Positions 11,650 to 26,708 of a stretch of 64,000 bases of DNA are shown here, one piece after another. The stretch spans positions 75,969 through 139,968 of the forward strand of contig JAIPHX010000003.1 in assembly GCA_021734995.1 (NCBI GenBank), given 5' to 3'. Source of the stretch: Minisyncoccota bacterium (GTDB lineage Bacteria; Patescibacteriota; Minisyncoccia; Phycocordibacterales; UBA9973). Position numbers and translations under genes: made by a program. The notes beneath the pieces are model-generated. The model worked only from the letters and a program-made list of their open reading frames with translations. It did not search any database and was not told the origin of the DNA. Position 1 is the stretch's first letter. Every line of letters begins with the position of its first letter.

Positions 11650-11738
11650 CGTTCGAAAGTCATCCACCAAAGCGAGCCATCAAAAAACAGCTCAAATACT
11701 GGGCTGTTTTTTTGTTACCCCAATAGGGTTCAGAACTC
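11650..11738 (+). repeat. cassette-boundary repeat copy R0 (degenerate, contains terminator hairpin)
   Basis: cgttcgaaagtcatccaccaaagcgagcca ... agggttcagaactc. The embedded hairpin aacagc-tcaaatactgg-gctgtt plus T7 (11686..11713) is followed by tttgttataat and the ATG at 11751. Confidence 0.6.
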
Positions 11739-11750
11739 AAATTTGTTATA

Positions 11751-12461
11751 ATGGTAGTAATGAAAAAGATTATTATCTATTTTTTATCGGCAATACTCAT
11801 TCTCGTAGTTTGTGGATATGGACTGCTTCAAATCAGTAAATCACGCACTTTTCAATTTTTCGGCAGTATCGTAAACCGAGTTGATACTGAAGAAAAAGTT
11901 ATTGCCCTCACATTTGATGACGGACCAGAGACACACACGAATGAGATACTGGATGTACTGCAGGAAAAGCAAATAAAAGCCACATTTTATGTGATTGGTG
12001 AAAGATTGCAGGAAAACTTAGAGATTGGACAGCGTATTACTGATGAGGGACACGAACTTGGCAACCATTCGTACACGCATCAGAGATTTTTATTCAAACC
12101 TCTATCTTTTATAGATAGTGAAATTCAAAATACAAATCAACTTATCCGAGAAGCAGGATATGAAGGAGCTATAACATTCCGCCCTCCTTATGGAAAAAAG
12201 CTTCTGGGACTTCCTTGGTATCTAAATAAACACAACATTGAAACTATTATGGTTGATGTTGAACCTGATACTTATGGCACAACGTCGGACTTCTTTGTTG
12301 AATATACGATTGCAAATACAAAAGCTGGCTCTATTATACTTCTTCACCCATTTTGTGAGACCTGTAGTGAACAAAGAAAAGCTGTTCCGCTAATAATAGA
12401 TGCACTGAAGGAAAAGGGTTATACATTTGTTACGGTTTCTGAATTGCTTTCCAGAAGATAA
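11751..12461 (+). CDS. polysaccharide deacetylase (NodB homology domain)
   Basis: TFDDGPETHT...GNHSYTHQ motifs of carbohydrate esterase family 4. N-terminal TM anchor. Confidence 0.75.
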   Translation: MVVMKKIIIYFLSAILILVVCGYGLLQISKSRTFQFFGSIVNRVDTEEKVIALTFDDGPETHTNEILDVLQEKQIKATFYVIGERLQENLEIGQRITDEGHELGNHSYTHQRFLFKPLSFIDSEIQNTNQLIREAGYEGAITFRPPYGKKLLGLPWYLNKHNIETIMVDVEPDTYGTTSDFFVEYTIANTKAGSIILLHPFCETCSEQRKAVPLIIDALKEKGYTFVTVSELLSRR

Positions 12462-12538
12462 ATCACTTAGCTAAAGCTATAAGATTATTGATTGTATTCA
12501 AATGATATTCAGGATCGGGATATAAAGTAGCCCAGTCA

Positions 12539-12648
12539 AAAGTTCGAAATGCACACCTCCATTCGAGCAAAATAAAACGTAGAGAATACGCTGATACATA
12601 TAGAGTTAAAAGTGTGAAATATCCTACCTGTGAACAGGGTTCGAACTT
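12539..12648 (+). repeat. cassette-boundary repeat copy R1 (variant 5' half)
   Basis: aagttcgaaatgcacacctccattcgagcaaaat ... cagggttcgaactttt. It shares a ~70-bp upstream extension (gatattcaggatc...) with copy 13201..13275. Confidence 0.65.
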
Positions 12649-13143
12649 TTACAATAACTTCCTAACTCTTTCAGTAAATGTATTCATATGGTAATGAAGT
12701 GGAAAAGGTACAAGCACTCCATTGTTTACAACGTTGAACCCGTCCTCGAGGAGAGGTTTTTCTAATAATCTACAAATGTTAGATTTGACTAAAATGATAG
12801 GTATCTGTTTGTCGCCTATAATAGATCGCAAATCATTCTTGAAGTTTTCGTAATTAGACAAAATAAGTTTGTCCGCTTCTTTATCTGAGAGTTTATTAAC
12901 CGGGGTGTAAATTGGATTAACTAACAAATATCCCTTACTAGCCAATTTCTTCAAACCCTCATCTTTGTTGGTGGGAGAGAAATCTATAACGGCTTTCATA
13001 AAGGCACGAAACAATACTTCCGAAACACGTCCACTTGGATCGTAAAAATAACCGTGACCTGCTGGCGGGGACTCTAATACAAAAATAGCCTTAATCTTTT
13101 TAGGTAGATATTTATTCCGTAGAGAAACATAGTCCGTGTCCAT
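12649..13143 (-). CDS. hypothetical protein (inverted cassette)
   Basis: 164-aa ORF on the opposite strand to most cassettes. No motif recognised. Confidence 0.45.
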   Translation of the reverse strand: MDTDYVSLRNKYLPKKIKAIFVLESPPAGHGYFYDPSGRVSEVLFRAFMKAVIDFSPTNKDEGLKKLASKGYLLVNPIYTPVNKLSDKEADKLILSNYENFKNDLRSIIGDKQIPIILVKSNICRLLEKPLLEDGFNVVNNGVLVPFPLHYHMNTFTERVRKLL

Positions 13144-13200
13144 ATAAGTATTATATAAAAATTAGCGTGCCAAAGCGATTAGTCTGTCGATTTGCCCTAA

Positions 13201-13275
13201 GTGATATTCAGGATCTGTGTATACACCAACCCAATCAAAAGTTCGAAATGCGTCCCTCCACTCGAGCCAACAAAT
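13201..13275 (+). repeat. cassette-boundary repeat, 5' half-copy
   Basis: gtgatattcaggatctgtgtatacaccaacccaatcaaaagttcgaaatgcgtccctccactcgagcc. No 3' GTTCGAACC partner. Confidence 0.55.
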
Positions 13276-13278
13276 TTT

Positions 13279-14163
13279 TTAAAAATTAATAAAATAGTTT
13301 TTCTTATTAAACCATTTATCATACCAAGGGCTCGGGTCTTTATTTTCTTTTCCATAATAATGCCAAAGGTCATTCAGGGCACAATGAGCAAAAAGAAGTT
13401 TTCTGTCTATTTTTTCTCCTTTCAATTTTTCGTACTCAAGAACCATAGCTATTCCTAGATCAATATCATAACGACCCATTAATTGACGAAAATCAACTTC
13501 TGGATGGTCTAAACAAACATTTCCAAAATCTATTAATCCATTAAATTTATAAGAAGTAGTATCTATTATAATATTCTTCCAATGAAAATCACTATGAGTT
13601 AAAACTAGATTACTCTCAGAAAGAGAAAGCTCAATAATCTGACTAATTTCTGTAATTAGTTTTCCTATATTTTCCGACTTATCTTTATAACTATTTATAA
13701 TACTTGCCTGATGTTGTCTTTTTGTATGATAGTTTTTATTGGGACAAGACTGAAGATCTATATTAATTTTTTGACTATGAAATTCATACAAAAAAGAACC
13801 TAGTTGTTTACCTAGCTCTTTTTTCTTCTCTTCGTCCATTTTGAATAAAAATGGTTTAAGTATCTCTCCTTTAATTAGATTTGATAAATAACAATTGAAA
13901 TTCGAGTTACGATAAATCAATTCAGGCATGTGATGCATTTTCCCATTTAAAGATTCAAGAATAGCACTCTCTGTATTAATATCATTTACCTCTATTCCTT
14001 TTGGGTTTTTCTTAGCTACCTTAAGTACATACTGATTATCGATTAAAAATATTTCATTTGCGTTTCCTTCAGCAAAAGATTCTATTTTCCCAACAGGATT
14101 AATTAAATTCAATTCATCTATTTTTTGAACTATTTTTTTAATTTGATCCATTTCTAATGCCAT
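13279..14163 (-). CDS. aminoglycoside/antibiotic phosphotransferase-like kinase (APH/choline-kinase fold)
   Basis: Brenner motif LTHSDFHWKNIII and IDFGN (the HxDxxxxN...DFG pattern of the APH family). Confidence 0.65.
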   Translation of the reverse strand: MALEMDQIKKIVQKIDELNLINPVGKIESFAEGNANEIFLIDNQYVLKVAKKNPKGIEVNDINTESAILESLNGKMHHMPELIYRNSNFNCYLSNLIKGEILKPFLFKMDEEKKKELGKQLGSFLYEFHSQKINIDLQSCPNKNYHTKRQHQASIINSYKDKSENIGKLITEISQIIELSLSESNLVLTHSDFHWKNIIIDTTSYKFNGLIDFGNVCLDHPEVDFRQLMGRYDIDLGIAMVLEYEKLKGEKIDRKLLFAHCALNDLWHYYGKENKDPSPWYDKWFNKKNYFINF

Positions 14164-14440
14164 ATATTATTAATATACCTTATTTTTCCTTATTCAGACA
14201 GTTTCAAACATCATCCCAAACTCGGATCCATTTTAAAAAATTATATTTTATAATAATCATTTTGATACTAGATAGGGAAACTAAGTCATACATAAGTATC
14301 TCATATAAAAGGTAGGGGTCGTTTCCAGGGTCCAGAGACCCCCCTGCTTGCGTTTCTATAATAATTCTATATTAAAGATAATAAATGAGTAATCTCCTTG
14401 TTTGTTGTTTCTATGTCTCCCACAGCTTTAGGCCAATCAT

Positions 14441-14528
14441 AAGTTCGGAAAGCAGACTCCCACGCGAGCAGAGTTTAACCCATATTTTATAAAGGTTATT
14501 TTTCGGAGGTTAGTATAAGTTCGAACCT
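14441..14528 (+). repeat. cassette-boundary repeat copy R2
   Basis: aagttcggaaagcagactcccacgcgagcagag ... cccatattttataaaggttatttttcggaggttagtataagttcgaacct. A degenerate 5' half also sits at 14203..14230. Confidence 0.7.
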
Positions 14529-14576
14529 AAGTATATAGTGCTACTTACAGTGGGATAAATATGATAAGATAAAAAA

Positions 14577-15062
14577 ATGACAGAAGAATTTTCAAAACCT
14601 AATTTTAATTTAGAAAATATAATTGATCAAAAAATATTTGATAAAAATAGGAATTTTCATGGAGTAAAAGGTCTTGTTTTTATCGGTGATAAAATTCTTA
14701 CATACAGAAGAGATACTAAAACAAAAAGTTTTCCACTATATATAGATTTACCTGGTGGTGGTAAAGAAGAAGGTGAATCGCCATTTGATACTTTTAAAAG
14801 AGAGACTAAAGAAGAATTTGGAATTGAAATAAATCCTGATGATGTAAAATATGCAAAACAATATATGAGTGCAATGGATACAACCAAGGAATCATATTTT
14901 ATTGTTGTTAATCCATTAAATATGAAAGAAAGCGATGTAGTTTTTGGAGATGAAGGATTAGAGCCTGTGTTAATTACCCCTGATGAATATTTGAAGTTAA
15001 ATGATGCAATCAAAAGACAACAGGATAAAGTAGTAGATTACCTAGCTACATTTAAAGAGTAG
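14577..15062 (+). CDS. NUDIX hydrolase
   Basis: Nudix box GGGKEEGESPFDTFKRETKEEFGI (Gx5Ex7REUxEExGU). Confidence 0.75.
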   Translation: MTEEFSKPNFNLENIIDQKIFDKNRNFHGVKGLVFIGDKILTYRRDTKTKSFPLYIDLPGGGKEEGESPFDTFKRETKEEFGIEINPDDVKYAKQYMSAMDTTKESYFIVVNPLNMKESDVVFGDEGLEPVLITPDEYLKLNDAIKRQQDKVVDYLATFKE

Positions 15063-15086
15063 ATTATTCTTTCTCTAATATACTCC

Positions 15087-15172
15087 CTCGAACTTCATCC
15101 CAAGTTCGGAGCCATTTTTTGAACCTTAATTTGCAATGGTTATTTTTCGAAGGTTAGTAGAAGTTCGAACCT
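15087..15172 (+). repeat. cassette-boundary repeat copy R3
   Basis: cctcgaacttcatcccaagttcggagcc ... ggttatttttcgaaggttagtagaagttcgaacct. Confidence 0.7.
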
Positions 15173-15196
15173 ACTCTTTATGTTATAATTCCCTTT

Positions 15197-15967
15197 ATGA
15201 AAGAATTTCAGAAACCTATTGGTAGGTTAGATGGCCATACTTTTGTTTTAGGTACTGCTGTCAAAAAAGAAATAATCGGGATTTTGTCAAAAAAATCCTC
15301 TCAAAAAGCAACTCAAGAAACTCTAGCTGCTTTTGTTCCTGAAAGAGTTCGAAGTGTTGCTGTAAATCCAAAAAACATAGAACTCTATCAACTTTCCGAT
15401 GAACAAGGTGAAATTTCAGTACTAGTACTTGAAAAAGATTATCCTACTAAACTAACTGATAAAGAAGAGTATAGTAAGTGGAAACACAATATTGAATTAG
15501 CAAAACAAGTACAAGAAAGAGTAAGATTCAAAATCTTACCTAATGCTCCTACCTCTGTAAACAAACTACATGCAAAATTTAGTTCACTAATTGACTCAGG
15601 ATATTTATCTCTCTCTACTAGAGTCCTTATGTTTACCAAAGTATTATTATACCCAAGCAATCCAGAGGCTTTATTTGTGAAAGATTTTGATGGTGAGACT
15701 CAGCAAGGGATTGGGCAAGATTTTTATAAAAACCAACTCCCAGTATTGGCTAAGAATTTAGGACTAAGGTTTGTTGTAGGACAAAATAATGGCGGAAATT
15801 TTACTTTCTTCAAGGATACACTAGGAAGATATACTCAGGAAGACTTGAAACCAGAATTCAGAGTTGTGCTCTTTCCTGATCATATAAATGATAGATTTTT
15901 TACTATTCAGTTTTTATATCCTGAAGATATTGAGAAATATGTCCAGAAAGAAGCAATTAAGTCTTAA
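15197..15967 (+). CDS. hypothetical protein (cassette)
   Basis: 256-aa ORF between two repeat copies. No motif recognised. Confidence 0.45.
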   Translation: MKEFQKPIGRLDGHTFVLGTAVKKEIIGILSKKSSQKATQETLAAFVPERVRSVAVNPKNIELYQLSDEQGEISVLVLEKDYPTKLTDKEEYSKWKHNIELAKQVQERVRFKILPNAPTSVNKLHAKFSSLIDSGYLSLSTRVLMFTKVLLYPSNPEALFVKDFDGETQQGIGQDFYKNQLPVLAKNLGLRFVVGQNNGGNFTFFKDTLGRYTQEDLKPEFRVVLFPDHINDRFFTIQFLYPEDIEKYVQKEAIKS

Positions 15968-15976
15968 GTAATACCA

Positions 15977-16062
15977 TTCGAACATCACCCCAAGTTCGGA
16001 GCAGAATTTCAAACCATATTTTATAAAGGTTATTTTTTGGAGGTTAGTAGAAGTTCGAACCT
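15977..16062 (+). repeat. cassette-boundary repeat copy R4 (near-consensus)
   Basis: ttcgaacatcaccccaagttcggagcagaatttcaaaccatattttataaaggttattttttggaggttagtagaagttcgaacct. The -10 tgatataat (16065..16073) follows, with a GTG start at 16080. Confidence 0.75.
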
Positions 16063-16079
16063 AATGATATAATTCCTTT

Positions 16080-16532
16080 GTGAATAATTTTCTCCAGCAA
16101 GCAATAGAATTATCAAAAAAATCTATCGAACAAGGAGGTTTTCCTGTTGGTGCTCTAGTGGTAAAAGATGAGGTCATAATCTCTGAAGGACTTAGTGACG
16201 GAAAAAATAGAAAGGACGCTACTAGCCACGCGGAGATCGAAGCAATAAGAAACGCCTCAATTAAATTAGATACTCGTGACTTAAAAGGTTGTGAAGTATA
16301 CTCTTCGATGGAACCTTGTCTTATGTGTTTTTCTGCTTGTTATTGGGCAAAAATAACAAAGATAGTATATGCCGTCGGAAAGGATAAACTTTCCAAGCAA
16401 CATTATGAAGGATTACATTCAATTGAAAATATCAATACAGAAAATAACAGGCAAATTGAAATTATTCATATCAAAGAATTAGAAAACGAAGCTCTTTCCC
16501 TTATCCAAGATTGGGAAAAGAATCTAAGATAG
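16080..16532 (+). CDS. CMP/dCMP-type zinc deaminase (TadA/guanine deaminase-like)
   Basis: HAEIEAI ... SSMEPCLMCFSAC zinc-binding motifs (H-A-E, PCxxC). GTG start. Confidence 0.7.
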   Translation: MNNFLQQAIELSKKSIEQGGFPVGALVVKDEVIISEGLSDGKNRKDATSHAEIEAIRNASIKLDTRDLKGCEVYSSMEPCLMCFSACYWAKITKIVYAVGKDKLSKQHYEGLHSIENINTENNRQIEIIHIKELENEALSLIQDWEKNLR

Positions 16533-16535
16533 CCA

Positions 16536-16621
16536 TTCGAATATCATTCCAAGTCTAGAGTCAACAAAATCACCTTATTTTACACGGTGATTTTTTCCTA
16601 CCTTGATATAAGTTCGAACCT
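16536..16621 (+). repeat. cassette-boundary repeat copy R5 (central terminator hairpin)
   Basis: ttcgaatatcattccaagtctagagtc-aacaaaatcacc-ttattttacac-ggtgatttttt-cctaccttgatataagttcgaacct. A 9-bp stem plus T-run sits in the variable core. Confidence 0.7.
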
Positions 16622-16649
16622 AAATGTTTTTTGTGTATAATATAAATAT

Positions 16650-17534
16650 ATGAAAAAACAGAAATTGGGATTTATTGGGCTTGGCCTGATGGGAAAATAT
16701 ATGACTCTTAATTTACTCAAAAACAAGTATCAAGTCGTCGGGTATAATCGTTCAAAGAAGGTATTAAATGAATTAAAAAAATCAGGTTTAATTATTGCTC
16801 AAAATCCTAAAGAGATAGCTCTTAGAAGTGAAATTATAATTTTAATGTTGCCGAGCTCAAAAGAAACAGGTGAGGTTATTTTCGGCAAGAGTGGATTAAT
16901 TGAGGGTTTAAGAAAGGGGCAGGTTGTTATTGATATGAGCACTTCTAACCCCGCAGAAACTAAAAAGATAATGGAAGTTTTGAAAAAGAAAGGTGTGTTT
17001 ATGATGGATGCTCCAGTGTCTAGGGGGCAAAAAGCAGCAGTCGCAGGAGTTCTGTCTATAATGGTTGGTGGTGATAAAAAGATTTTTAATAAATGTTTAC
17101 CAATTTTTAAAGCAATGGGGGAGTATGTAGTATATTTAGGATCTTTTGGTTCCGGGTTGTATGTGAAAGCATTAAATAACTTTCTTTTTGCAATGAACTT
17201 ATTGGCAAGTAGTCAGGGATTGATGATGATAAAGAAAAATAAGATAGATTTAAAAAAGGCAATAGAAGTTATTGAAGAGAGTTCAGGAAATAATACAGCT
17301 CTATCTCCATCTATTAAAAATCGTCTTGGTGAAAAACATCCTTCTATTGGTTTTTATCTTAAACATATGGCTAAGGATATGAAGATATTTAACGATGTTG
17401 TAAAAGATCAAAAGATCTACAATACTCTTGCAAAACCCGTTTCTGACTTTTTCGCAAAAATGGCAAAGTTGCACACTGGTAAAGATTCAATGTATTTGTT
17501 TGAGCATTATGTGGTAAAAAGCAATAAAAAATAG
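16650..17534 (+). CDS. NAD-binding 3-hydroxyisobutyrate/6-phosphogluconate dehydrogenase-family oxidoreductase
   Basis: N-terminal Rossmann motif LGFIGLGLMGKYM. Overall length and layout fit the HIBADH family. Confidence 0.6.
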   Translation: MKKQKLGFIGLGLMGKYMTLNLLKNKYQVVGYNRSKKVLNELKKSGLIIAQNPKEIALRSEIIILMLPSSKETGEVIFGKSGLIEGLRKGQVVIDMSTSNPAETKKIMEVLKKKGVFMMDAPVSRGQKAAVAGVLSIMVGGDKKIFNKCLPIFKAMGEYVVYLGSFGSGLYVKALNNFLFAMNLLASSQGLMMIKKNKIDLKKAIEVIEESSGNNTALSPSIKNRLGEKHPSIGFYLKHMAKDMKIFNDVVKDQKIYNTLAKPVSDFFAKMAKLHTGKDSMYLFEHYVVKSNKK

Positions 17535-17566
17535 TATTTACCACTTATTTTTTTCCATTAAACTTA

Positions 17567-17652
17567 TTCGAACATCACCCCAAGTTCGGAGCAAAATTTT
17601 CGCCCATATTTTATAAAGGTTATTTTTCGGAGGTTAGTAGAAGTTCGAACCT
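17567..17652 (+). repeat. cassette-boundary repeat copy R6 (consensus)
   Basis: ttcgaacatcaccccaagttcggagcaaaattttcgcccatattttataaaggttatttttcggaggttagtagaagttcgaacct. Confidence 0.75.
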
Positions 17653-17738
17653 AAATATATATATTGATACCCACTGTGGGGGAAATATGATAAATTTTGC
17701 ACATATTCTACATAGGCGTGAGATGATATAATGAGACC

Positions 17739-18299
17739 ATGAAACAAGTACTTGGTCTTAGAAAGGGATTTGTTAAGATAGAAAAATATAATCCCTTGTG
17801 GCAAAAAGAGTTTGACAAAGAAAAGAAAAACTTGAAAAAAATTTTTGGTGATGTTTCTCTATCAATAGAACATGTAGGATCTACTTCAGTTGTAGGCTTG
17901 TCTGCAAAACCAATAATTGATATTGCTATTGGAGTTGATTCACTAAAAGACATAGCACAAGTTAAAGAGAAAATATTAAAGTTCTCGCATTATTCGATCA
18001 AGGAAAATAACGCAGATGGTGAAATCCTTATGAGAAGAGGTGTGCCAATAAAGTTGGGTGAAGATAAACCAAATTTTATAACTCATTTTATTCACATTAT
18101 GGAAATAGATAGCAGGAAATATAAGGAAACACTAATATACCGTGATTATCTAAGAAAAAATAAAGAAGTCCTAAAAGAATATGATAATCTAAAGAAAAAG
18201 TTGGCTATAAAATACCAGAAAGAAAGAAAATCTTATACTAAAGCAAAGGATGAGTACATCAAAAGTATTTTAAGTAAGTGTAATAGCTCGAATTTATAG
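17739..18299 (+). CDS. GrpB-family (nucleotidyltransferase-fold) protein
   Basis: HVGSTSVVGLSAKPIIDIAIGV matches the GrpB/UPF0157 signature. Confidence 0.6.
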   Translation: MKQVLGLRKGFVKIEKYNPLWQKEFDKEKKNLKKIFGDVSLSIEHVGSTSVVGLSAKPIIDIAIGVDSLKDIAQVKEKILKFSHYSIKENNADGEILMRRGVPIKLGEDKPNFITHFIHIMEIDSRKYKETLIYRDYLRKNKEVLKEYDNLKKKLAIKYQKERKSYTKAKDEYIKSILSKCNSSNL

Positions 18300-18411
18300 T
18301 ACTGATTTGTAGCTAGACCCTTCTTACTACAACTTATTCGTAAAACTTATTACAGTATTACGATACTTACGATATATTTATATATCTTTTATTTATCATT
18401 CAATATCTCTT

Positions 18412-18497
18412 GTCGAACATCATCCCAAGTTCGGAGCAAAGTTTTAAGCAATATATCCCAATGGTTAGTCTTCTTACCTTAGTAAAAGTTCGAACCC
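18412..18497 (+). repeat. cassette-boundary repeat copy R7
   Basis: gtcgaacatcatcccaagttcggagcaaagttttaagcaatatatcccaatggttagtcttcttaccttagtaaaagttcgaacc. Confidence 0.7.
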
Positions 18498-18556
18498 CAT
18501 TGATACTTGCACGGTTTTACTAATGTGATATAATAGGCGTATCACTATGAAGAAGA

Positions 18557-19078: not shown

Positions 19079-19120
19079 TACGTAATTATATCACCCCTTA
19101 ATCCTTTAACAATATACTTA

Positions 19121-19206: not shown

Positions 19207-19222
19207 ATGATATAATTTTTGC

Positions 19223-20086: not shown

Positions 20087-20095
20087 ATAAATATA

Positions 20096-20192
20096 TTCTA
20101 ACGTTCTCCCAAGTCCGAAGCAAAATCTCTAACTTTATTTCATAAGGAATTTTTTTCCTACAATTTTAGGAACTATTGCGAAGTTTGAACCT
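20096..20192 (+). repeat. cassette-boundary repeat copy R9 (degenerate)
   Basis: ttctaacgttctcccaagtccgaagcaaaatctc ... ggaactattgcgaagtttgaacct. The -10 tgataaaat and an ATG at 20213 follow. Confidence 0.6.
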
Positions 20193-20212
20193 GTGATAAA
20201 ATTATTGACAAT

Positions 20213-20608
20213 ATGAAACAATCAATTGCTCTTACATCGTTAGTTGTTGCAGATTACGATGAGGCTATTAATTTTTATACAAAAAAACTTCATTTTTCTT
20301 TAATTGAAGATACATATCAACCAGAAGAAAATAAGAGATGGGTAGTTGTTGCTCCACCAGGTTCTTCTAGTTCTCAGCTTCTATTAGCAAAAGCATCTAC
20401 ACCTGAACAAAAATTATTTATCGGTAATCAAACTGGGGGAAGAGTATTTCTTTTTCTAAATACTGATGATTTTTGGAGAGATTATAAAGAAATGATTTCT
20501 GTGGGAATTGAATTTGTGAGAGAACCCAAGACTGCTTCTTTTGGGACATTTGCTGTCTTTAAGGACTTGTATGGAAATTTATGGGACTTAATTGAGGTAA
20601 AAAAATAG
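20213..20608 (+). CDS. VOC-family (glyoxalase/bleomycin-resistance fold) protein
   Basis: 131 aa. Paired beta-alpha-beta-beta-beta modules. The C-terminal FGTFAVFKDLYGNLWDL is typical of VOC proteins. Confidence 0.6.
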   Translation: MKQSIALTSLVVADYDEAINFYTKKLHFSLIEDTYQPEENKRWVVVAPPGSSSSQLLLAKASTPEQKLFIGNQTGGRVFLFLNTDDFWRDYKEMISVGIEFVREPKTASFGTFAVFKDLYGNLWDLIEVKK

Positions 20609-20634
20609 GATTTTTTATTTTCCTACAATACTCA

Positions 20635-20667
20635 TTAGAACATCGTCTCAAGTGCGGGTCAAAATTT
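20635..20667 (+). repeat. cassette-boundary repeat, degenerate 5' half
   Basis: ttagaacatcgtctcaagtgcgggtcaaaattt. Confidence 0.45.
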
Positions 20668-20755
20668 AAAGATAGCTATTAATACATATAAAGTATATGC
20701 TTAATATATTATCTTGTTTTGTCGGGAACATGGACTTATTCTAGATTTTTATTTT

Positions 20756-20893
20756 ATGATTACAACAATTGCAATTATCTTATTGATCTTATGGGTTTTA
20801 GGTTTTATTGGTTTTCCTATTTTAGGAGGATTTATTCACATACTTTTAGTGATAGCTGTAATCCTTGTTTTGCTTCGTATCATTCGCGGGTAA
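20756..20893 (+). CDS. lmo0937-family small membrane protein (45 aa)
   Basis: MITTIAIILLILWVLGFIGFPILGGFIHILLVIAVILVLLRIIRG. The track ORF 20719..20904 is in a different frame. This frame gives the conserved ...LRIIRG C-terminus typical of the lmo0937/DUF5670 family. Confidence 0.55.
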   Translation: MITTIAIILLILWVLGFIGFPILGGFIHILLVIAVILVLLRIIRG

Positions 20894-20924
20894 AACTCAT
20901 TTAATTTTATCCAAAAAGGTTCTC

Positions 20925-21010
20925 ACTTCGTCTAGTAGAGGGAGCAAAATTTTAAGCCATATTTTATAATGGTTACTTTTTGCTATTTTTTTTTGCAAAA
21001 GTTCCTGCCT
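20925..21010 (+). repeat. cassette-boundary repeat copy R11 (degenerate)
   Basis: cttcgtctagtagagggagcaaaattttaagccatattttataatggttactttttgc ... gcaaaagttcctgcct. Confidence 0.55.
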
Positions 21011-21036
21011 GAATTATTTTGGTGTATAATTTAAAA

Positions 21037-21573
21037 ATGGAAACAATAATAGAAAAAGCAAAAAGATTTGCAAAAGAAGCTCATAAAAATCATTCAGAGA
21101 ATGATTCACTTAAAACACCTTATTTCTTCCATCTACAGAGAGTTGCTAGATTGGTTCAATTATCTGGTGGAACAGATGAAGAAATCGCTTCTGCGTGGCT
21201 TCATGATACGGTAGAAGATACTGATGTAACAATTGAAGATATACAAAAAGAGTTTGGTGACAATATAGCAAGTATTGTTAACGGACTAACAGACCTACTT
21301 GAATGGAGTAAACTTTCTATTTCAGAAAAAAAATTAGCCCAAGCAGAAAGGATTTCCAACGAAAATGATTCTGTAAAACGAGTTAAGATTGCTGACCAAA
21401 TCTCTGGTAGTGAATTAGATGCTAGAAATCTTCTTATAAGCAAGCAAGATAGATTGGAAAGTTTTGAAGGTGTTAAAAAGGTTGCTAGTGCTTGTAATGG
21501 AGTTAGTCAAGGTCTTGATGATTTATTTTCTGAAATAAGCGAAGAGATAGACTGGTATTTAGCGAATAGCTAG
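21037..21573 (+). CDS. HD-domain metal-dependent phosphohydrolase
   Basis: HLQRVARL ... WLHDTVEDT gives the H...HD...D motifs. Start moved to the ATG at 21037 (METIIEKAKRF), because the track start at 21019 would include the tgtataat promoter. Confidence 0.65.
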   Translation: METIIEKAKRFAKEAHKNHSENDSLKTPYFFHLQRVARLVQLSGGTDEEIASAWLHDTVEDTDVTIEDIQKEFGDNIASIVNGLTDLLEWSKLSISEKKLAQAERISNENDSVKRVKIADQISGSELDARNLLISKQDRLESFEGVKKVASACNGVSQGLDDLFSEISEEIDWYLANS

Positions 21574-21581
21574 AATAGCTA

Positions 21582-21666
21582 TTCGAACATCCTCTAAAGT
21601 TCGGAGCATTGCAAATATTCTCATTTTTCAGGGGTATTTTTTCTACTTTATAACAAGTGCTAACCT
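21582..21666 (+). repeat. cassette-boundary repeat copy R12
   Basis: ttcgaacatcctctaaagttcggagcattgcaaatattctcatttttcaggggtattttttctactttataacaagtgctaacct. Confidence 0.65.
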
Positions 21667-21683
21667 GTGGTAGAATTAAAATT

Positions 21684-22247
21684 ATGCAAAATAATGTATT
21701 TATATTCCACGGAACTGAAGGATACCCAGAAGAAAACTGGTTTCCTTGGCTAAAAGAAAAACTTGAAGCAAAAGGTTGTAATGTTATTGTGCCACAATTT
21801 CCAACTTCTCCAGTAGTGCCTGCTAAAATAGCAGAATGGTTTGAGGTCCTAAAAGGTTATGAGCAGTATATAAATGAAGATACAATTTTAATTGGTCATA
21901 GTTTAGGTGGCGTATTTGCTCTAAGAGTATTAGAACAATTAAAACATCCAGTCAAAGCAGTTTTTCTAACAGGAACACCAATAGGAGTAAAACCAATTCT
22001 TAGTTATGATAGGGATAATAGTTTTGGTGGTTTTAATTTTGATTGGCAAAAGATTAAAACTAACGCTAAACATTTTGATGTTTTTCAATCAGACAATGAC
22101 CCTTATGTTTCTTTAGGGAATGGAGAACAATTAGCTAAAAAATTAGGTGTTGAGCTTACTTTTATACCAAATGCTGGGCACTTTAATAAAAAAGCAGGAT
22201 ACTTAAGTTTTCCTGATTTATTAACTAAGATTGAAACAATTTTATGA
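21684..22247 (+). CDS. alpha/beta hydrolase (YdeN/RBBP9-like serine hydrolase)
   Basis: Nucleophile elbow GHSLGG, catalytic-region Asp and a C-terminal His (NAGHFN). Start moved to the ATG at 21684 (MQNNVFIFHG), downstream of the tggtagaat -10. Confidence 0.6.
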   Translation: MQNNVFIFHGTEGYPEENWFPWLKEKLEAKGCNVIVPQFPTSPVVPAKIAEWFEVLKGYEQYINEDTILIGHSLGGVFALRVLEQLKHPVKAVFLTGTPIGVKPILSYDRDNSFGGFNFDWQKIKTNAKHFDVFQSDNDPYVSLGNGEQLAKKLGVELTFIPNAGHFNKKAGYLSFPDLLTKIETIL

Positions 22248-22253
22248 GAATAT

Positions 22254-22649
22254 ATGGAAAATTATAGAGGTGTAATAATTGAAGAAAGCTTAGAAAACAA
22301 AGAAGTGCTTAAAAAAGTTCAGATTTTGGAAACCAAGATTAGTATTGTTTCAGAAAAACATAAAACTCCTTGGATTAAACAATGGACCTTGCATACTGTT
22401 TTAATTCCAGAAAATGAAGCTGAGAACATTGCTAAAGAGCTGAGCGTCTCTTTGGATACAGAGCATAACTGGTATGCTGATTATAGAAGCAAAACTCATC
22501 ATTATATTATTTTCAGAGATAAGGTTTTTTACATAAACAGAAAAAGCATAGAAGAATATAATAAAGCAAAAGAGTATGGTCTTTCTTTGGGTATTCCAGA
22601 ATACCAAGTAGATTTTCACCCAGATGTGAAAGAGTGGGAAAAAGAATAA
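22254..22649 (+). CDS. hypothetical protein
   Basis: 131-aa ORF directly after the hydrolase with no intervening repeat. Same cassette. Confidence 0.4.
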   Translation: MENYRGVIIEESLENKEVLKKVQILETKISIVSEKHKTPWIKQWTLHTVLIPENEAENIAKELSVSLDTEHNWYADYRSKTHHYIIFRDKVFYINRKSIEEYNKAKEYGLSLGIPEYQVDFHPDVKEWEKE

Positions 22650-23251
22650 AATTAGTTCTGAGCATTGGTGTTGCTTTTGTAATACATCTATTATTTGGTA
22701 TAATTAATGTTATGAAAAATAACAAAGGTTCAGTGTTAGTTATTGTATTAACAATGGCGTTATTGGTTGCTGTTGGGGGTGTTATATATTATGCAGGTAA
22801 GAGTTCAAAAACTATTCCTTTTGTAGAGGAAAATAATCTACTACAAGAGAATCAAGGTAATGTTGTAAATAATCCAGTAAACAATAATACAACAACAGTA
22901 ACAACTACAACAACTACAGTTGCAACTCCTTCTATTACAGTTCTTTCTCCAAATGGTGGAGAATCATATACTACTAGTACTACCATTAAACAGATTCCAG
23001 TAACATGGAAAAGTTCTGGTATTGTAAGTCGTAATGTTGCCATATATGTTAAAAATGTTTCTACTGGGAATGAAGCACCTATTTTAGTAGCTCCTGATAA
23101 CGGCTCAACAGAAATTTACGGTATTCCTTCTGGAAATTATAAAATAAGAATTTGTAATACTAATGCCCAATCAGGAAATTTTGAGGTTGTATATAACCCA
23201 GATTGTTCCTCTGCTTCTGATTATTCTGATAATTCATTTACAGTTCAATAG
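22634..23251 (+). CDS. membrane-anchored protein with Thr-rich linker
   Basis: Two N-terminal TM helices, a TTTVTTTTTTVATP linker and a beta-rich extracellular domain. Overlaps the previous ORF by 16 nt. Confidence 0.45.
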   Translation: MGKRIKLVLSIGVAFVIHLLFGIINVMKNNKGSVLVIVLTMALLVAVGGVIYYAGKSSKTIPFVEENNLLQENQGNVVNNPVNNNTTTVTTTTTTVATPSITVLSPNGGESYTTSTTIKQIPVTWKSSGIVSRNVAIYVKNVSTGNEAPILVAPDNGSTEIYGIPSGNYKIRICNTNAQSGNFEVVYNPDCSSASDYSDNSFTVQ

Positions 23252-23339
23252 GTATAAGTAATTTAACAAAAAGACCCATTGTAAGGTACCCCATTTTTAA
23301 TACTAAAAGTTAACCTTTAATCCATGTTATAATTAAATT

Positions 23340-23627
23340 ATGGTTAAACATATTTTACTTTTTAAATTCAAGCAAGGAGTAAGCGAAGAGGAAAAGAATA
23401 AAGGAATAGAAATGCTTAGATCATTAAAAGAAAAAGTTCCTGAAATTAAGGAATGGGAGATAGGAATACAGAGAGAGAAATCAGAAAAATTCTATGATTT
23501 TGCCCAAGTATCTTCTTTTGAAAATATTGAAGATATAAAAAGGTTTGGTGAAAATCCAGAACATGAAAAAGTTAAGGCATATCTAAAAGAAAGAGCAGAT
23601 TGGGTAAAGGTTGATTATGATTTTTAA
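23340..23627 (+). CDS. Dabb (stress-responsive dimeric alpha+beta barrel) protein
   Basis: 95 aa. MVKHILLFKFKQGVSEEEK ... fits the Dabb domain. Confidence 0.55.
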   Translation: MVKHILLFKFKQGVSEEEKNKGIEMLRSLKEKVPEIKEWEIGIQREKSEKFYDFAQVSSFENIEDIKRFGENPEHEKVKAYLKERADWVKVDYDF

Positions 23628-23657
23628 ATCATAACTACTAATTTCCACCAATATACT

Positions 23658-23713
23658 TATTTGAACATCATACGAAGTTTAAATTTGCATTAAGGTTTAT
23701 TTATGGGAATAAG
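23658..23713 (+). repeat. cassette-boundary repeat, degenerate copy
   Basis: tatttgaacatcatacgaagtttaaatttgca ... aaggtttatttatgggaataag. Confidence 0.45.
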
Positions 23714-23834
23714 AATCAAAAAACTTAAATACTGTTGTTTAATTACAGAAGAAAATGTTTGATACATTAAGATTCGTCTCCAAATAAAACTATCCAAATA
23801 CTTCCATAGTATGAAATATTTTTTAGAACTGTAT

Positions 23835-24284
23835 TTATGAATTAATTTTTATAAATGCTTCTTTCACTGACTTGTTAAATATAAAATAATAACCAATAAT
23901 AAGGTTAATCACCAAAATAATGAAATTATCATAATTGCCATTTAATATTGATCCAATACTTACCAAAATTCCAAGAATAGAAATAATGATAACAAGAATT
24001 CTTGTCCAGTTTTTACCAGACCATAAACCCCTAGCTACAAAAAAATATACAAAACCAATTAGGATTACAATAAAACCAATAACAACAAAAACAGCAGTGC
24101 CTATTGTAGTTATTGGTGGGAAAAATTGACCCATAACTCGAGACAATATATTGCCTGCAAATATTGCCCAAATTCCTGAAATCCAAACACCTACCGCAAT
24201 AATATAATTTATAACAGCTAGTATTTTTACTGGCAAAGGTACAATTTTTAATAAACTTTTATCCTCTATAATTTTATTATCCAT
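23835..24284 (-). CDS. membrane protein (inverted cassette)
   Basis: 149 aa, 4 predicted TM helices. Confidence 0.45.
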   Translation of the reverse strand: MDNKIIEDKSLLKIVPLPVKILAVINYIIAVGVWISGIWAIFAGNILSRVMGQFFPPITTIGTAVFVVIGFIVILIGFVYFFVARGLWSGKNWTRILVIIISILGILVSIGSILNGNYDNFIILVINLIIGYYFIFNKSVKEAFIKINS

Positions 24285-24430
24285 AAATTTTATTAATATT
24301 AATTACTTTTCTAATACATATATATTAACCTAAATACTAAAAAATTCATAAAAATTAAACATCTTCTTTTTTCGCTAAATAACTTGGAATATTCGCTTTA
24401 GTTTCATCTTTGGTGAGATGGGACTGTCTC

Positions 24431-24501
24431 ATGTTTGGATCCTAATTTAAAGTCATATATTTTAATGGTTATTTTGCCTACCTAAGTAGCAGTTCAAACC
24501 C
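24431..24501 (+). repeat. cassette-boundary repeat copy R14 (3' half conserved)
   Basis: catgtttggatcctaatttaaagtcatatattttaatggttattttgcctacctaagtagcagttcaaaccc. The -10 tgatataat and an ATG at 24518 follow. Confidence 0.6.
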
Positions 24502-24517
24502 ATGATATAATACTAAA

Positions 24518-24865
24518 ATGTTTAATAAAAAAAATATACAAAATATACCAACAGAGCAAACCTCACATAACTCTGGTTCTAGAAAGATGTTGACTACCAA
24601 AGAAGAAGTTGACTCTAGGTGCTTTGAAGCTTTTACTTACGGGTTTTTACCACCAAAAGAAAAATGGGTAATGCACAAACATGAAAATATTGTTGAAATA
24701 TGTTTGGTAGTAAAAGGGTCTGGTGTTATCAGAAACTTAAAAGGGGAAACAGAAAAATTTGAATCTGGAGACAGATTTATTTTCCCCTCTGACATAGAAC
24801 ATGAAATAGAAAATCTTTCGGAGGAGACAGCAGAATTTTATTTTTTTAGGATTCAATGTATTTAA
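24518..24865 (+). CDS. cupin-domain protein
   Basis: HKHENIVEICLVVKGSG ... GDRFIFPSDIEHEIEN gives the two cupin motifs. Confidence 0.6.
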   Translation: MFNKKNIQNIPTEQTSHNSGSRKMLTTKEEVDSRCFEAFTYGFLPPKEKWVMHKHENIVEICLVVKGSGVIRNLKGETEKFESGDRFIFPSDIEHEIENLSEETAEFYFFRIQCI

Positions 24866-24871
24866 GACTTA

Positions 24872-24956
24872 TTCGAACATTGTCCAAAGTATAGAGCCTG
24901 TGAATCACTTTTATCTTCAAGGCAACTTTTACCTACCTTTGTAGAAGTTCGAACCT
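24872..24956 (+). repeat. cassette-boundary repeat copy R15
   Basis: ttcgaacattgtccaaagtatagagcctgtgaatcacttttatcttcaaggcaacttttacctacctttgtagaagttcgaacct. Confidence 0.7.
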
Positions 24957-24972
24957 ATGATAAAATCATCAT

Positions 24973-25668
24973 ATGAAAAAAACACCAGAACAAGCATTAG
25001 AAGAAATATTTGATGAGTATAAAGATCAAGGCCTCATCTCCCTATATTTATATGGTTCAATTTTAACAAAAGATTATATTGAAGGTGCGAGTGATATTGA
25101 TTCAATTGGTTTTGCCACTGAAGAAATGTCAATTACTCTTGAAAATGAAATAAAAAATAAATTGTGTGAAAAAACTGGTTTTGAACAATTTGGTTTTAGA
25201 CTTTTATATAAATCTGAATTAGATACAGGGGTCATAAAAGGCAATTTAGCAAGTTTCATTCATCCACAGTTATTGCTTCTTGATTTTCCACATTGGAAAT
25301 ATGTAATTGGTAAAAACTTTCTGAGGTCAGATTTTTTACTAGTAGATATTGATGCAATTGGGGCTGTAAAAATTAGGTTAGATCACTTAGTAAGAATTGA
25401 AAATGAGTCATTTAAAACACATCCAGGGGGTAAACACATTTTGTTTTTAAAAGTTTTAGCTCGGATAATGTTTCATTTACAAAAAGAACGAGGTTGTAAT
25501 GACCCTTTTTCATATAGTTCAGTATTTTCTAATTCAAACGAGGAAGAAAAACCAGTTGCCGAAGCAATCCTTAACTGTAAAAAAAGTAAATGGGATGAAT
25601 CTATGTTCAAGGAAAATGTGACTATTTATAAAAACTATATTGATACTCTGAGGAGTCGTTATTTATAG
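24973..25668 (+). CDS. ANT-like nucleotidyltransferase (putative aminoglycoside/lincosamide adenylyltransferase family)
   Basis: LYLYGSILTKDYIEGASDIDSIGF matches the GS-x9-DxD polymerase-beta-like NTase motif seen in ANT(9)/AadA/Lnu enzymes. Confidence 0.55.
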   Translation: MKKTPEQALEEIFDEYKDQGLISLYLYGSILTKDYIEGASDIDSIGFATEEMSITLENEIKNKLCEKTGFEQFGFRLLYKSELDTGVIKGNLASFIHPQLLLLDFPHWKYVIGKNFLRSDFLLVDIDAIGAVKIRLDHLVRIENESFKTHPGGKHILFLKVLARIMFHLQKERGCNDPFSYSSVFSNSNEEEKPVAEAILNCKKSKWDESMFKENVTIYKNYIDTLRSRYL

Positions 25669-25683
25669 AACCTATCATATTCA

Positions 25684-25769
25684 GTCGAACATTGTTCCAA
25701 GTTTGGAGTAGAATTTAAAGCCATATTTTACAATGGATATTTTGGGTACCTTTTTATGCTTTGAAACCT
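25684..25769 (+). repeat. cassette-boundary repeat copy R16
   Basis: gtcgaacattgttccaagtttggagtagaatttaaagccatattttacaatggatattttgggtacctttttatgctttgaaacc. The -10 tggtataat and a leaderless ATG at 25786 follow. Confidence 0.7.
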
Positions 25770-25785
25770 TTGGTATAATAAAATT

Positions 25786-26379
25786 ATGAAAACTGAAATT
25801 GAAGCTAAATTTTTAAATATTGATGTTGAAAAAATAAGAACTAAATTAAAAGAAATTGGTGCTGTTTTAAAATATCCAGAAAGATTCATGAAAAGAAAGG
25901 TTTTTGATTACCCAGATGAAAGATTAAAAAAAGAAGGGGCATGGATTCGTGTTAGAGATGAGGGAGATGAAAAGATAACTTTGAGTTATAAGAAACTTAT
26001 AGATAGAACTCTTAATGGAACAAAAGAAATAACCTTAGATGTAAGCAATTTTGAAACTATGTGTGATTTTCTTCAGGCATGTGGTTTTGATAGTAAATCG
26101 TATCAAGAAACTAAAAGAGAAAAATGGATGATCGGAAATTCAGAAATTACGATTGATACATGGCCTTGGATTCCAACATTCGTAGAAATAGAATCTGAAA
26201 CAGAAGAAGAAATACATAGAACTTCGGACCTGCTTGGTTTTGATTGGAATAAAGCTTTTCATGGAAGCGTAGAAACAGCTTACCAAGATGTATTTGATGT
26301 TACAGAAGATGAGGTTGATGGATGGGAAGAGATTACTTTTATTCCTGTCCCAGATTGGTTAGAAATTAAGAGAAAATAG
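25786..26379 (+). CDS. CYTH-domain protein (class IV adenylate cyclase / triphosphatase family)
   Basis: N-terminal EIEAKF (ExExK) signature. Acidic residues recur through the tunnel fold. Confidence 0.65.
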   Translation: MKTEIEAKFLNIDVEKIRTKLKEIGAVLKYPERFMKRKVFDYPDERLKKEGAWIRVRDEGDEKITLSYKKLIDRTLNGTKEITLDVSNFETMCDFLQACGFDSKSYQETKREKWMIGNSEITIDTWPWIPTFVEIESETEEEIHRTSDLLGFDWNKAFHGSVETAYQDVFDVTEDEVDGWEEITFIPVPDWLEIKRK

Positions 26380-26606
26380 TATTTATTCACATTTCTTTCC
26401 AAGCGCAGAACAAACAGTGAATCCTAATTTAGATGGGTGCATTTCTTGTTGCGGTAATCTCCCATATATTTCTTGGACGTCGTTTTTCCTCCATAAATAG
26501 TTTAATCAAGAAATAATCTTAGTGATTTTTATAGATTATGCTAAAGATAATAATTAATTAAACAATACACTCGGGTTAGGGAACACTTCATTCCACTCTA
26601 TAGCCC

Positions 26607-26692
26607 CTAAGTTATCCTTCCAACAATCGAGCCCTTTTTCTATACATATCTCCACATACTTGTTTGATCTACCTAAGTAGAAGGGTGAACCT
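26607..26692 (+). repeat. cassette-boundary repeat, last (degenerate) copy
   Basis: ctaagttatccttccaacaatcgagcc ... acctaagtagaagggtgaacct. The -10 tggtatagt and an ATG at 26709 follow. A further degenerate 5' half sits at about 26395..26430. Confidence 0.5.
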
Positions 26693-26708
26693 ATGGTATA
26701 GTGTTTAT

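Follow-up and report, generated by a model that had tools for sequence, protein, structure and literature searches.

A probable tRNA-Asn island of single-gene cassettes bounded by large serine recombinase half-sites in a Minisyncoccota genome

In the tycheposon islands of Prochlorococcus (bioRxiv 10.1101/2020.12.28.424599) and in Islander-type tDNA islands (PMC4383910), elements integrate into the 3' part of a tRNA gene, carry att direct repeats at their ends, push older insertions away from the tRNA and build up recombinase-less remnants together with cargo. A minority of tycheposons use a large serine recombinase (LSR) for this purpose (bioRxiv 10.1101/2020.12.28.424599). We analyzed a 64,000-nucleotide stretch of a Minisyncoccota genome (contig JAIPHX010000003.1, positions 75,969 to 139,968; hereafter the window), in which an array of about 20 small gene cassettes follows a tRNA-Asn(GUU) gene and an integrated LSR element, and which shares these traits. 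The marker left at each junction is here apparently not a partial tRNA but an element-derived attachment-site arm, the P arm, which doubles as the C-terminal coding tail of an LSR. The units also differ from those of the described islands in being uniform, with 0.5 to 1.5 kb and one gene each, and in starting with a copy of the tRNA terminator region and a promoter, and the host range is that of the Candidate Phyla Radiation (CPR), in particular the Paceibacteria.

In staphylococci, elements of the staphylococcal cassette chromosome (SCC) type, including SCCmec, use large serine recombinases (Ccr) and have just one attB, located at the 3' end of rlmH (orfX), which is a housekeeping gene. In SCC, as in the accretion-mobilization of streptococcal cis-mobilizable and integrative and conjugative elements (CIME/ICE), tandem arrays include recombinase-less elements bounded by direct repeats, and these can be excised with an autonomous neighbor through alternative repeat pairs. 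The present locus differs from both in its target, which is tRNA-Asn instead of a protein-coding gene, in its units, which contain one gene behind a standard terminator/promoter head and number about 20 in 15 kb, and in being known from sequence alone.

Integrons, sedentary chromosomal integrons and clusters of attC sites lacking an integrase (CALINs) resemble the locus in their ordered arrays of small cassettes with one co-oriented repeat per cassette, in the frequent absence of a recombinase from the array and in occasional reversed cassettes (here that of an NYN nuclease). Unlike integrons, the locus has no IntI, its site is a duplex LSR half-site and not a folded attC, its capture point is a tRNA gene and not attI, and each cassette has its own promoter instead of depending on Pc. 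The att sites of the Listeria A118/LI integrase (PMC3783163) share with those described below an attP of about 52 bp with distal motifs placed symmetrically about 21 to 26 bp from the center, a motif lying 5 bp closer in attB, and a recombinase gene that abuts attP. In our case attP and the final ~25 codons of the LSR gene overlap, and integration would therefore swap the C-terminal tail from an L-type to a tRNA-antisense type; moreover, many attR-type copies lie in tandem, and the B' side of attB showed no recognizable motif in the alignment of LSR sites.

In the searchable literature we found no description of these arrays, of an LSR/tRNA-Asn system, or of integrons or serine-recombinase islands in CPR bacteria. 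Conceptually, the system belongs with the tRNA-gene islands that arise by serial site-specific integration, among which its single-gene regularity, its terminator/promoter head, the use of LSR C-terminal coding DNA as an attP arm and its host group are unusual. CPR bacteria have tiny genomes with few recognized mobile elements, and their acquisition of accessory genes is poorly understood.

The recombinase element and the cassette array

On balance, we favor the view that LSR site-specific recombination built a genomic island here, anchored at the tRNA-Asn(GUU) 3' end, and that LSR elements probably mobilize its recombinase-less cassettes. What carries this view is the identity of the repeated box with the P arm, a 5-bp offset between box and tRNA, the tRNA-Asn genes that head the arrays, and an intact LSR element in front of the first repeat.

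The LSR gene (2437-3993; protein MCF7834115.1) encodes the Pfam domains Resolvase, Recombinase and Zn_ribbon_recom and is annotated at NCBI as a recombinase family protein of Candidatus Paceibacterota. Its translation continues into the antisense strand of tRNA-Asn. Scanning the window open reading frames (ORFs) of at least about 100 aa with Pfam (at least 60 ORFs) revealed no tyrosine recombinase and no Phage_integrase domain, leaving the LSR as the sole recombinase. The absence of IntI noted earlier was thus confirmed, as was the statement that the only recombinase lies 8 kb upstream of the array; the LSR is connected with the array, since its element spans the distance from tRNA-Asn to the first repeat. 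The tRNA-Asn gene itself is split in its anticodon loop by a group I intron of about 248 nt (Rfam Intron_gpI, 2094-2403, 85.9 bits). ARAGORN did not call the split gene at 2129-2449; its exons were read from the sequence and agree with the tRNA-Asn genes of related loci L014, L083 and others (L001, L002, etc., denote related loci and P0001 to P0120 denote proteins). DNA similar to the intron/3'-exon stretch (window ~2170-2450) also lies beside arrays in L019, L033 and L034.

The tRNA-Asn end now reads GAGC/AATG (slashes mark junctions), while GAGC/CA is restored at the first repeat copy, 11652-11677, which has the 26-nt geometry of a P arm as opposed to the 21 nt of the tRNA B arm. We therefore delimit the LSR element as 2450-11677, which places the distal end of this 9.2-kb element precisely at the first repeat copy. 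Its attL and attR share a core of only 4 to 5 nt, and the exact crossover dinucleotide is not fixed.

Downstream, an ~90-nt module occurs in ~20 copies between mostly single genes from 11.6 to 26.7 kb, always on the plus strand. Repeat finding returned families of 8 to 12 copies in the window; the 26-mer TTCGAACATCACCCCAAGTTCGGAGC gave 5 matches at ≤3 mismatches versus 0 expected (100 shuffles), and the right-box 13-mer AAGTTCGAACCTA gave 6 exact matches, every one on the plus strand. With a profile made from 106 related copies we detected 13 canonical left boxes (14182-25710, all plus strand) and no significant match in the remaining ~49 kb of the window. Together with 5 longer, "extended" copies and 2 degenerate ones found by reading the sequence (~20920-20945 and ~24416-24441), these make up the ~20 copies. 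The repeat and profile scans thus support the initial description of about 20 unrelated, mostly single-gene cassettes with a conserved, uniformly oriented junction element.

The same description had taken the module for an imperfect inverted repeat of ~85 bp, whereas we found it to be a composite of two parts, the right box of which is absent at several junctions of the window. The left part consists of a 26-nt box (TTCGAAC...GGAGC) and the ~25 nt 5' of it, and the right part consists of a hairpin, a T-run, the GTTCGAAC box and TATAAT. Read on the plus strand, a typical junction leads from the stop codon of the upstream gene through ~25 nt (tTTtATTTnTCTAAAATACTCA) to the left box, with the consensus TTCGAACATCAyCCCAAGTTCGGAGC, then to a short hairpin (10- to 11-nt loop), a T-run, GGAGGTTAGTAGAAGTTCGAACCTA or its variant CCTACCTnnGTAGAAGTTCGAACCTA, and finally TGnTATAAT and the ATG of the next gene. 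The boxes stay on the plus strand even around four reversed genes, which fall in 12649-14163, 18596-19078 and 23835-24284. The features are as follows.

2129..2449, plus strand: tRNA-Asn(GUU) with group I intron; exons 2129-2162 and 2411-2449, intron ~2163-2410; attB/attL side of the putative island
2437..3993, minus strand: LSR, 518 aa; stop codon inside the tRNA-Asn 3' end (...KTLLGR-stop)
2450..11677: integrated 9.2-kb LSR element; attL ...CCCGAGC/AATG at 2449/2450
11652-11677: attR of the LSR element, TTCGAAAGTCATCCACCAAAGCGAGC/CATC; GCGAGC/CATC at 11677/11678
11587..26700, plus strand: cassette array, ~20 units; each unit laid out as terminator-like hairpin and T-run, GTTCGAAC box, TGnTATAAT, gene(s), and left box (P arm) ending in GAGC
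11652..11677 (extended copy 11587-11679), plus strand: P arm 1, extended; attR of the LSR element; antisense reads WLALVDDFRTIDW...
12543..12568, plus strand: P arm 2, extended; antisense ORF 12463-12570 reads MLEWRCAFRTFDWATLYPDPEYHL...
13242..13267 (extended copy 13171-13269), plus strand: P arm 3, extended; antisense LEWRDAFRTFDW...
14203..14228, plus strand: P arm 4, canonical but degenerate; 24.3 bits
14444..14469 (extended copy 14370-14468), plus strand: P arm 5, extended; antisense LAWESAFRTYDWPKAVGDIETTNKEITHLLS
15087..15112, plus strand: P arm 6, canonical
15977..16002, plus strand: P arm 7, canonical, exact consensus; followed by hairpin, GTTCGAAC box and TGATATAAT to 16071
16536..16561, plus strand: P arm 8, canonical variant; from the profile
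17567..17592, plus strand: P arm 9, canonical
18412..18437, plus strand: P arm 10, canonical
19121..19146, plus strand: P arm 11, canonical
20096..20121, plus strand: P arm 12, degenerate; 12.3 bits
20635..20660, plus strand: P arm 13, canonical variant; from the profile
20920..20945, plus strand: P arm 14, degenerate, with a canonical hairpin next to it; repeat family D5; read from the sequence
21582..21607, plus strand: P arm 15, canonical; from the profile
23660..23685, plus strand: P arm 16, degenerate; 9.1 bits
24416..24441, plus strand: P arm 17, degenerate; followed by hairpin, box and TGATATAAT; repeat family D2
24872..24897, plus strand: P arm 18, canonical variant; from the profile
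25684..25709, plus strand: P arm 19, canonical variant; from the profile
~26555..26632, plus strand: P arm 20, degenerate extended; antisense ...IEWNEVFPNPSVL; read from the sequence
26668-26700: last right box and promoter, after P arm 20

One spacer between two boxes, 14230-14443, is unusually long and non-coding and holds a GC-rich inverted repeat (GGTAGGGGTCGTTTCCAGGGTCCAGAGACCCCCCTGC) in a region that otherwise has 30% GC; it may represent a remnant or encode a small RNA.

Left boxes and the attachment sites of related LSR elements

Translated on the antisense strand, the 106 left boxes (42 loci) read ...(W)LRTWDDVR[MI]x[IL][IL]xx-stop in one frame, with the stop codon 11 to 19 codons past that Leu in most copies. 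Their variation follows the codon, the entropy being 0.54 at position 3 and 0.19 to 0.23 at positions 1 and 2. Extended copies read WLAWRDNLRTIKWEEVFPNPSVSLREIKQLLSLV-stop and relatives in antisense, and the antisense end of P arm 20 is comparable to the tails WLAWRDNLRTIKWEEVFPNPSVS of such copies. Between P arms 2 and 3 we counted, by reading both, 9 synonymous codon differences, the changes being mostly synonymous, and the antisense peptide of P arm 5 is 73% identical to the tail of LSR fragment P0001. The left-box tail was found joined in frame to LSR C-terminal sequence (the last ~100 residues) in L009 and P0001-P0120, and the same tail ends the full-length LSRs of L049, L073, L091 and L080. 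Full-length LSRs with such tails occur in metagenome contigs and measure 500 to 560 aa, and ~40 related full-length LSRs adjoin att junctions. In autonomous elements the P-arm DNA is thus also the 3' end of the LSR gene, which accounts for the reading of the box as an antisense peptide with a stop at a fixed distance. Pfam gave no match for box-derived peptides, and the LSR piece had no relatives in IMG/VR; a viral origin was rejected.

We aligned about 65 LSR 3' ends at GGAGC/, in window orientation. The right side proved constant and represents the P' arm, C(C)AGTTAGGAC..AGCTArTTCnAG, which encodes ...LELA.CP.WL and has TTCnAG at +21 to +26. The left side fell into two classes. In the first (attL), a tRNA gene contributes its T-arm and acceptor end, the tRNA being tRNA-Asn or, occasionally, tRNA-Trp or tRNA-Gln, and the TTCGA of the T-loop occupies -21 to -17; in the second (attP), the left side consists of a left box (L-box) or an extended box, whose TTCGA occupies -26 to -22. 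An LSR attP is a pseudo-palindromic site of ~52 bp whose distal motif stands 5 bp closer to the center in attB (PMC3783163), and the position of TTCGA, 5 bp further from the crossover in the box than in the tRNA-Asn T-loop, equals this published attP/attB rule (PMC3783163). The aligned LSR 3' ends thus show the left box, previously read as an integron R'' box, to be the P arm of a predicted LSR attP. By the same token, L-box plus core plus LSR end represents a predicted attP, tRNA plus core plus LSR end a predicted attL, and L-box plus core plus anything else a predicted attR. We infer that crossover takes place at ...GAGC/, the end of the left box, and not at G/TTCGAAC as proposed in the earlier note.

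Other readings of the box were considered. Its end is identical to the tRNA end only over ..CGGAGC(CA), 5 to 9 nt, by eye 11 of the last 16 nt match, and the remainder of the box derives from the element; a left box made from a tRNA fragment or T-arm is unlikely, as lengths and stems, read from the sequence, misfit. The canonical box is not an 18-nt deletion of the extended box, TTCGA being at -26 from GAGC in both. A crossover at the dyad center of the box (TTCGAAC-N10-GTTCGGA), with an "SSV-like" split or rebuilt LSR gene, had been suggested by the junctions of orphan LSR pieces and was dropped for the array because tRNA-Asn would be destroyed and because the ~65 sites have their center of symmetry at GAGC/C.

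The 24-nt left-box pattern retrieved 41 stretches from ~35 species-level CPR metagenome-assembled genomes, labeled Paceibacteria, Nomurabacteria, Minisyncoccia or "Saccharibacteria", most with several same-strand copies 0.4 to 1.5 kb apart. The 106 copies hardly vary over the ~50 nt that surround the left box, while the sequence 3' of it is variable: about a quarter have the hairpin and right box there, and the others have a TTGACA...TATAAT promoter or other sequence. A tRNA-Asn gene lies directly upstream of the array, on the same strand as the boxes, in 11 of the 42 loci, namely, the window, L001, L002, L004, L014, L018, L026, L028, L030, L033 and L034. In L002, L004, L028, L018 and L001, tRNA-Asn ...CGGAGC(CA) is followed by the same hairpin, T-run and GTTCGAAC box as are found at left boxes, as exemplified by the tRNA end GGAGC/AAAATTTTTAGCCATATTTTGTAATGGTTATTTTTCCTACCTTAGTAGAAGTTCGAACCT of L004. 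The right box, taken for an attC box at first sight, is therefore part of a copied tRNA-Asn downstream flank, and each junction reads as a putative attR-type site, composed of a P arm and a copy of the natural flank of tRNA-Asn.

Autonomous elements were recovered as well. Elements of ~4 to 10 kb whose two ends are marked by an extended box and by LSR plus tRNA, respectively, are present in L062, L083, L117, L055, L061, L108 and L126, and the autonomous element in L042 has a primase-polymerase-like gene. In L080 (108-20295), two full LSR elements of ~10 kb each lie in tandem, with identical 37-aa extended tails at 108 and 10259, an arrangement that, as read from the contig, directly shows tandem accretion of autonomous elements. 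L029 and L044 share a cassette with the same gene and right box, in which either a 35-nt hairpin or a 300-nt LSR remnant lies between box and P arm.

Two further loci deserve mention. A contig binned as "Cytophagales" (L038, JBBRUH010000084.1) carries a full CPR-type array with 6 left and 7 right boxes, and it is either mis-binned or the product of a transfer outside CPR. At ~1040-1110 of L044 (reverse strand), a left box is split by an insertion of ~32 nt exactly between ..CCCACGTT and CGGAGC.

Assembly of the array and rival explanations

The unit between two GAGC/ points, consisting of tRNA-flank terminator, box/promoter, gene and P arm, is what would be expected if units had been inserted serially at the tRNA end. 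In the mechanism that we propose, an LSR element, aided by a directionality factor, would excise via attL and any downstream attR-type junction, taking 0 to n cassettes along, would integrate into the tRNA-Asn of another cell and would later leave cassettes behind. Arrays of self-expressing single-gene cassettes would thereby accrete, the newest beside the tRNA; in them, the hairpin would terminate transcription of tRNA-Asn or of the upstream cassette, and TGnTATAAT, an extended -10 promoter, would drive the next cassette gene. This would be accretion-mobilization of the kind known from SCC and CIME/ICE systems and also argued for the islands of tycheposons. Such mobility at the level of the cassette is what we infer from the junctions. 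The modules nearest the LSR are of the extended type, like its own P arm, except for the degenerate canonical box at 14203; farther away all are canonical, up to the last one, a degenerate extended copy. This order agrees with insertions that arrived in successive waves on the side next to the tRNA. In its outcome the locus is integron-like, with a fixed capture site and an ordered array of accessory genes, while enzyme, site and expression logic all differ.

Several observations weigh against an LSR-built island of mobile cassettes. The cassette junctions are devoid of a P' half-site and are not full attP sites, so that cassettes cannot self-integrate under standard LSR rules, and standard LSRs are not known to reuse attL as attB. 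Accretion via alternative attR sites would need a directionality factor, and none was identified; nor does the scheme account for the rise of single-gene cassettes with their own copy of terminator and promoter. The window LSR is only a distant relative (~30% identical) of the L062 family, the TTCnAG motif at +21 to +26 is missing from its P' side, and its cognate sites would be extended boxes, so that the window has no LSR for the canonical box. The fall of box quality with distance from the tRNA was weak and not significant (Spearman -0.44, p=0.13). Simple consensus scans neither flagged the hairpins, with their loops of 10 to 11 nt, as terminators nor found promoters enriched. In a cassette shared by L012 and L038, homology runs from the ATG to a degenerate box, without clean boundaries. 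Finally, the cassette presence/absence variation that one might look for in related assemblies was not seen: in the other assemblies with these genes, cassette order was identical, with no strain-level variation.

This identity among assemblies is equally what would be expected of a graveyard island, in which ~20 full-size LSR elements (8 to 10 kb) would have integrated serially at tRNA-Asn and each would have decayed to its last gene and attR. The boxes would then be inert scars, the cassettes would not be mobile units, and their regularity would be a by-product. The tandem full elements of L080, the LSR fragments beside boxes in L009, L044 and L052 and the degeneracy of several distal boxes agree with such a history, and tycheposon islands have been described in the same way, with newer elements pushing older ones inward and leaving fragmented integrases and partial tRNAs. 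We nevertheless regard it as unlikely. Straight after GAGC/, each junction repeats precisely the hairpin, box and promoter found downstream of the tRNA, which random decay would not remake 20 times; the left boxes are held to ~0.2 bit per position in ~35 species, more than neutral scars should be; the window array contains no LSR remnants; and cassette size is uniform (0.5 to 1.5 kb). An improbable reading is that of a purely regulatory module, a terminator-plus-promoter unit spread by duplication or gene conversion and without a role in recombination. Hairpin and T-run speak for it, as do stems that, on reading the sequence, differ compensatorily between copies (AACC/GGTT, TCACC/GGTGA and ACCC/GGGT), the TGnTATAAT after the right box at most junctions and a palindrome, GTTCGAAC, where an operator could sit. 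Yet termination does not require the left box, which is the best conserved part of the module, is identical to the LSR P arm and tail and keeps its orientation around reversed genes; the arrays are tied to tRNA-Asn, and promoter and terminator consensus scans showed no enrichment.

The reading as an integron without an integrase, whose attC sites would fold as single strands and be acted upon by a tyrosine IntI with its gene elsewhere in the genome, is largely refuted and in our view barely tenable. It was suggested by the unrelated single genes in one orientation, by cargo typical of chromosomal integrons and by terminal 7-mers that are reverse complements, and in one subtype the DNA fold of lowest energy joins ACCCCAA to TTGG(A)GGT and leaves a single base bulged. 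We examined pairing by aligning 27 modules from the window and ten other genomes, and by folding single strands. The outer TTCGAAC/GTTCGAA were complementary in 90% of cells, a figure due solely to the conservation of both motifs; the inner helix paired in 43%, a value that shuffled alignments reached; compensatory (two-sided) changes numbered 0 in the 27 modules; and single-strand DNA folds were weak (-7.6 to -10.5 kcal/mol, z -1.5 to -3.0). The R/L pairing expected of attC thus failed to appear. In addition, TTCGAAC and GTTCGAA each depart from the consensus RYYYAAC/GTTRRRY at two positions, the right box is wholly absent from many related junctions, the cassettes have their own promoters, and the LSR P arm already accounts for the box. 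The Pfam-scanned ORFs of the window included no tyrosine recombinase, clustering the ORFs of 41 related loci revealed no recurrent recombinase neighbor except LSRs, and a scan of the window at Rfam gathering thresholds returned only the group I intron, tRNA and LOOT RNA. A small non-autonomous transposon of the miniature inverted-repeat (MITE) or repetitive extragenic palindromic (REP) kind, inserted repeatedly between genes by way of TTCGAAC terminal inverted repeats, would have about the right size (~90 nt), inverted 7-mers at its ends and many intergenic copies. It is very improbable in view of the single orientation of the copies, which are confined to one cluster of 15 kb and absent from the rest of the 64 kb; reading the junctions disclosed no target-site duplications, the two "ends" differ in origin (LSR tail versus tRNA flank), and the left half often stands alone in related genomes.

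A non-canonical, recombinase-linked system in a CPR genome, as first surmised from the window, therefore stays the best reading. Going further, we tentatively raise the possibility that CPR/Paceibacteria possess a serine-recombinase counterpart of the integron, in which tRNA-Asn would be the fixed capture site and LSR elements would load, unload and exchange cassettes between cells; each cassette may then comprise a replacement tRNA terminator, its own promoter, one gene and an LSR half-site. A locus type of this kind, seen in at least 35 species in one scan, offers an experimentally testable mechanism of gene acquisition, and it concentrates resistance-like, detoxification, nucleotide-metabolism and defense genes at one tRNA gene. 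It suggests that integron-like arrays can rest on another chemistry, that of a serine recombinase acting on duplex DNA with a tRNA attB, and it cautions that repeats judged "attC-like" by eye can be LSR half-sites. A natural LSR family whose attP and attB can be read from genomes would also be useful for genome-engineering toolkits.

Orphan recombinase pieces, cargo and neighboring genes

In hundreds of CPR contigs we found orphan ORFs of 80 to 210 aa that represent LSR C-terminal pieces and have no Pfam match (related loci L042-L046 and L050-L124; proteins P0001-P0120). All of these pieces begin at one nucleotide, ..GACCAGAGT/ATTACTAAGGAC, at LSR residue ~405, and the breakpoint is ATTACTAAGGA. 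From general LSR architecture, we take residue ~405 to be, probably, the tip of the coiled coil. In intact LSR genes, the breakpoint site is a near-invariant imperfect palindrome, GACCAGAGT-ATT-ACTAAGGAC, and it lies away from the inferred LSR crossover. The DNA upstream of the breakpoint is unrelated; there, the clearer cases have the inner ~16 nt of the P arm (e.g., SSWLRTWG/ITK), and other orphans have unrecognizable sequence. Orphans were located at array ends in L045 and L046 and within the array in L044, and some share 89 to 95% identity with the corresponding segment of a full-length LSR that a different contig encodes (L062 versus L076, L065, L056 and L060). They might be split-recombinase partners, mimics of directionality factors or immunity factors controlling site use.

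The cassette array runs from NodB to CYTH, downstream of the LSR element, and its cassettes are uniform in size (0.5 to 1.5 kb). Pfam confirmed most of the cargo first assigned by reading, namely, NodB, APH, NUDIX, deaminase, GrpB, NYN, VOC, HD, Ser_hydrolase, Dabb, cupin and CYTH; NTP_transf_2 gave only a weak match, and the ORF at 20719-20904, called "lmo0937-family", gave none. At 21657-23251, three overlapping or adjacent ORFs (Ser_hydrolase, 131 aa and 205 aa) form a unit with no internal repeat, and hence some cassettes hold more than one gene.

The NYN-nuclease cassette is reversed relative to the boxes in the window (18500-19078) and likewise in L012 (2770-3378 and 4450-5027) and L014 (1320-1888). 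The cassette is preceded by a promoter of its own, TTGCA..TGTGATATAAT, and by a hairpin and T-run (AAGACCCTTATGTAGATTCGTCTACATTGGGGGCTTTTT), the hairpin being short and GC-rich. As predicted from these motifs, the promoter would yield a convergent small transcript, and by analogy with the reversed toxin-antitoxin cassettes of chromosomal integrons, the cassette may represent a toxin/antisense-RNA pair.

The LSR element carries cargo of its own. An AriA/PtuA-type OLD/ABC ATPase (7903-9468; PADLOC E=2e-35) is followed by a weakly matching SIR2-like protein (9471-10499; E=4e-4), a pair that on these matches looks like an anti-phage module. A LOOT RNA (Rfam RF03000, 67.6 bits) lies between divergent genes of the element at 5961-6084.

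Past the last box, ~18 kb (26700-44900) consist mostly of plus-strand genes without boxes, among them TspO, a methyltransferase, an Na/Pi transporter, MsrA, an ECF sigma factor and a MacB-type ABC system. An HPF-fmt-def-hisS-lepB-pth block adjoins tRNA-Asn and the array in L026, L028, L036 and L045. In the window the same block lies 18 kb off, at 44966-49471, and in the opposite relative orientation, a displacement that suggests an inversion or rearrangement.

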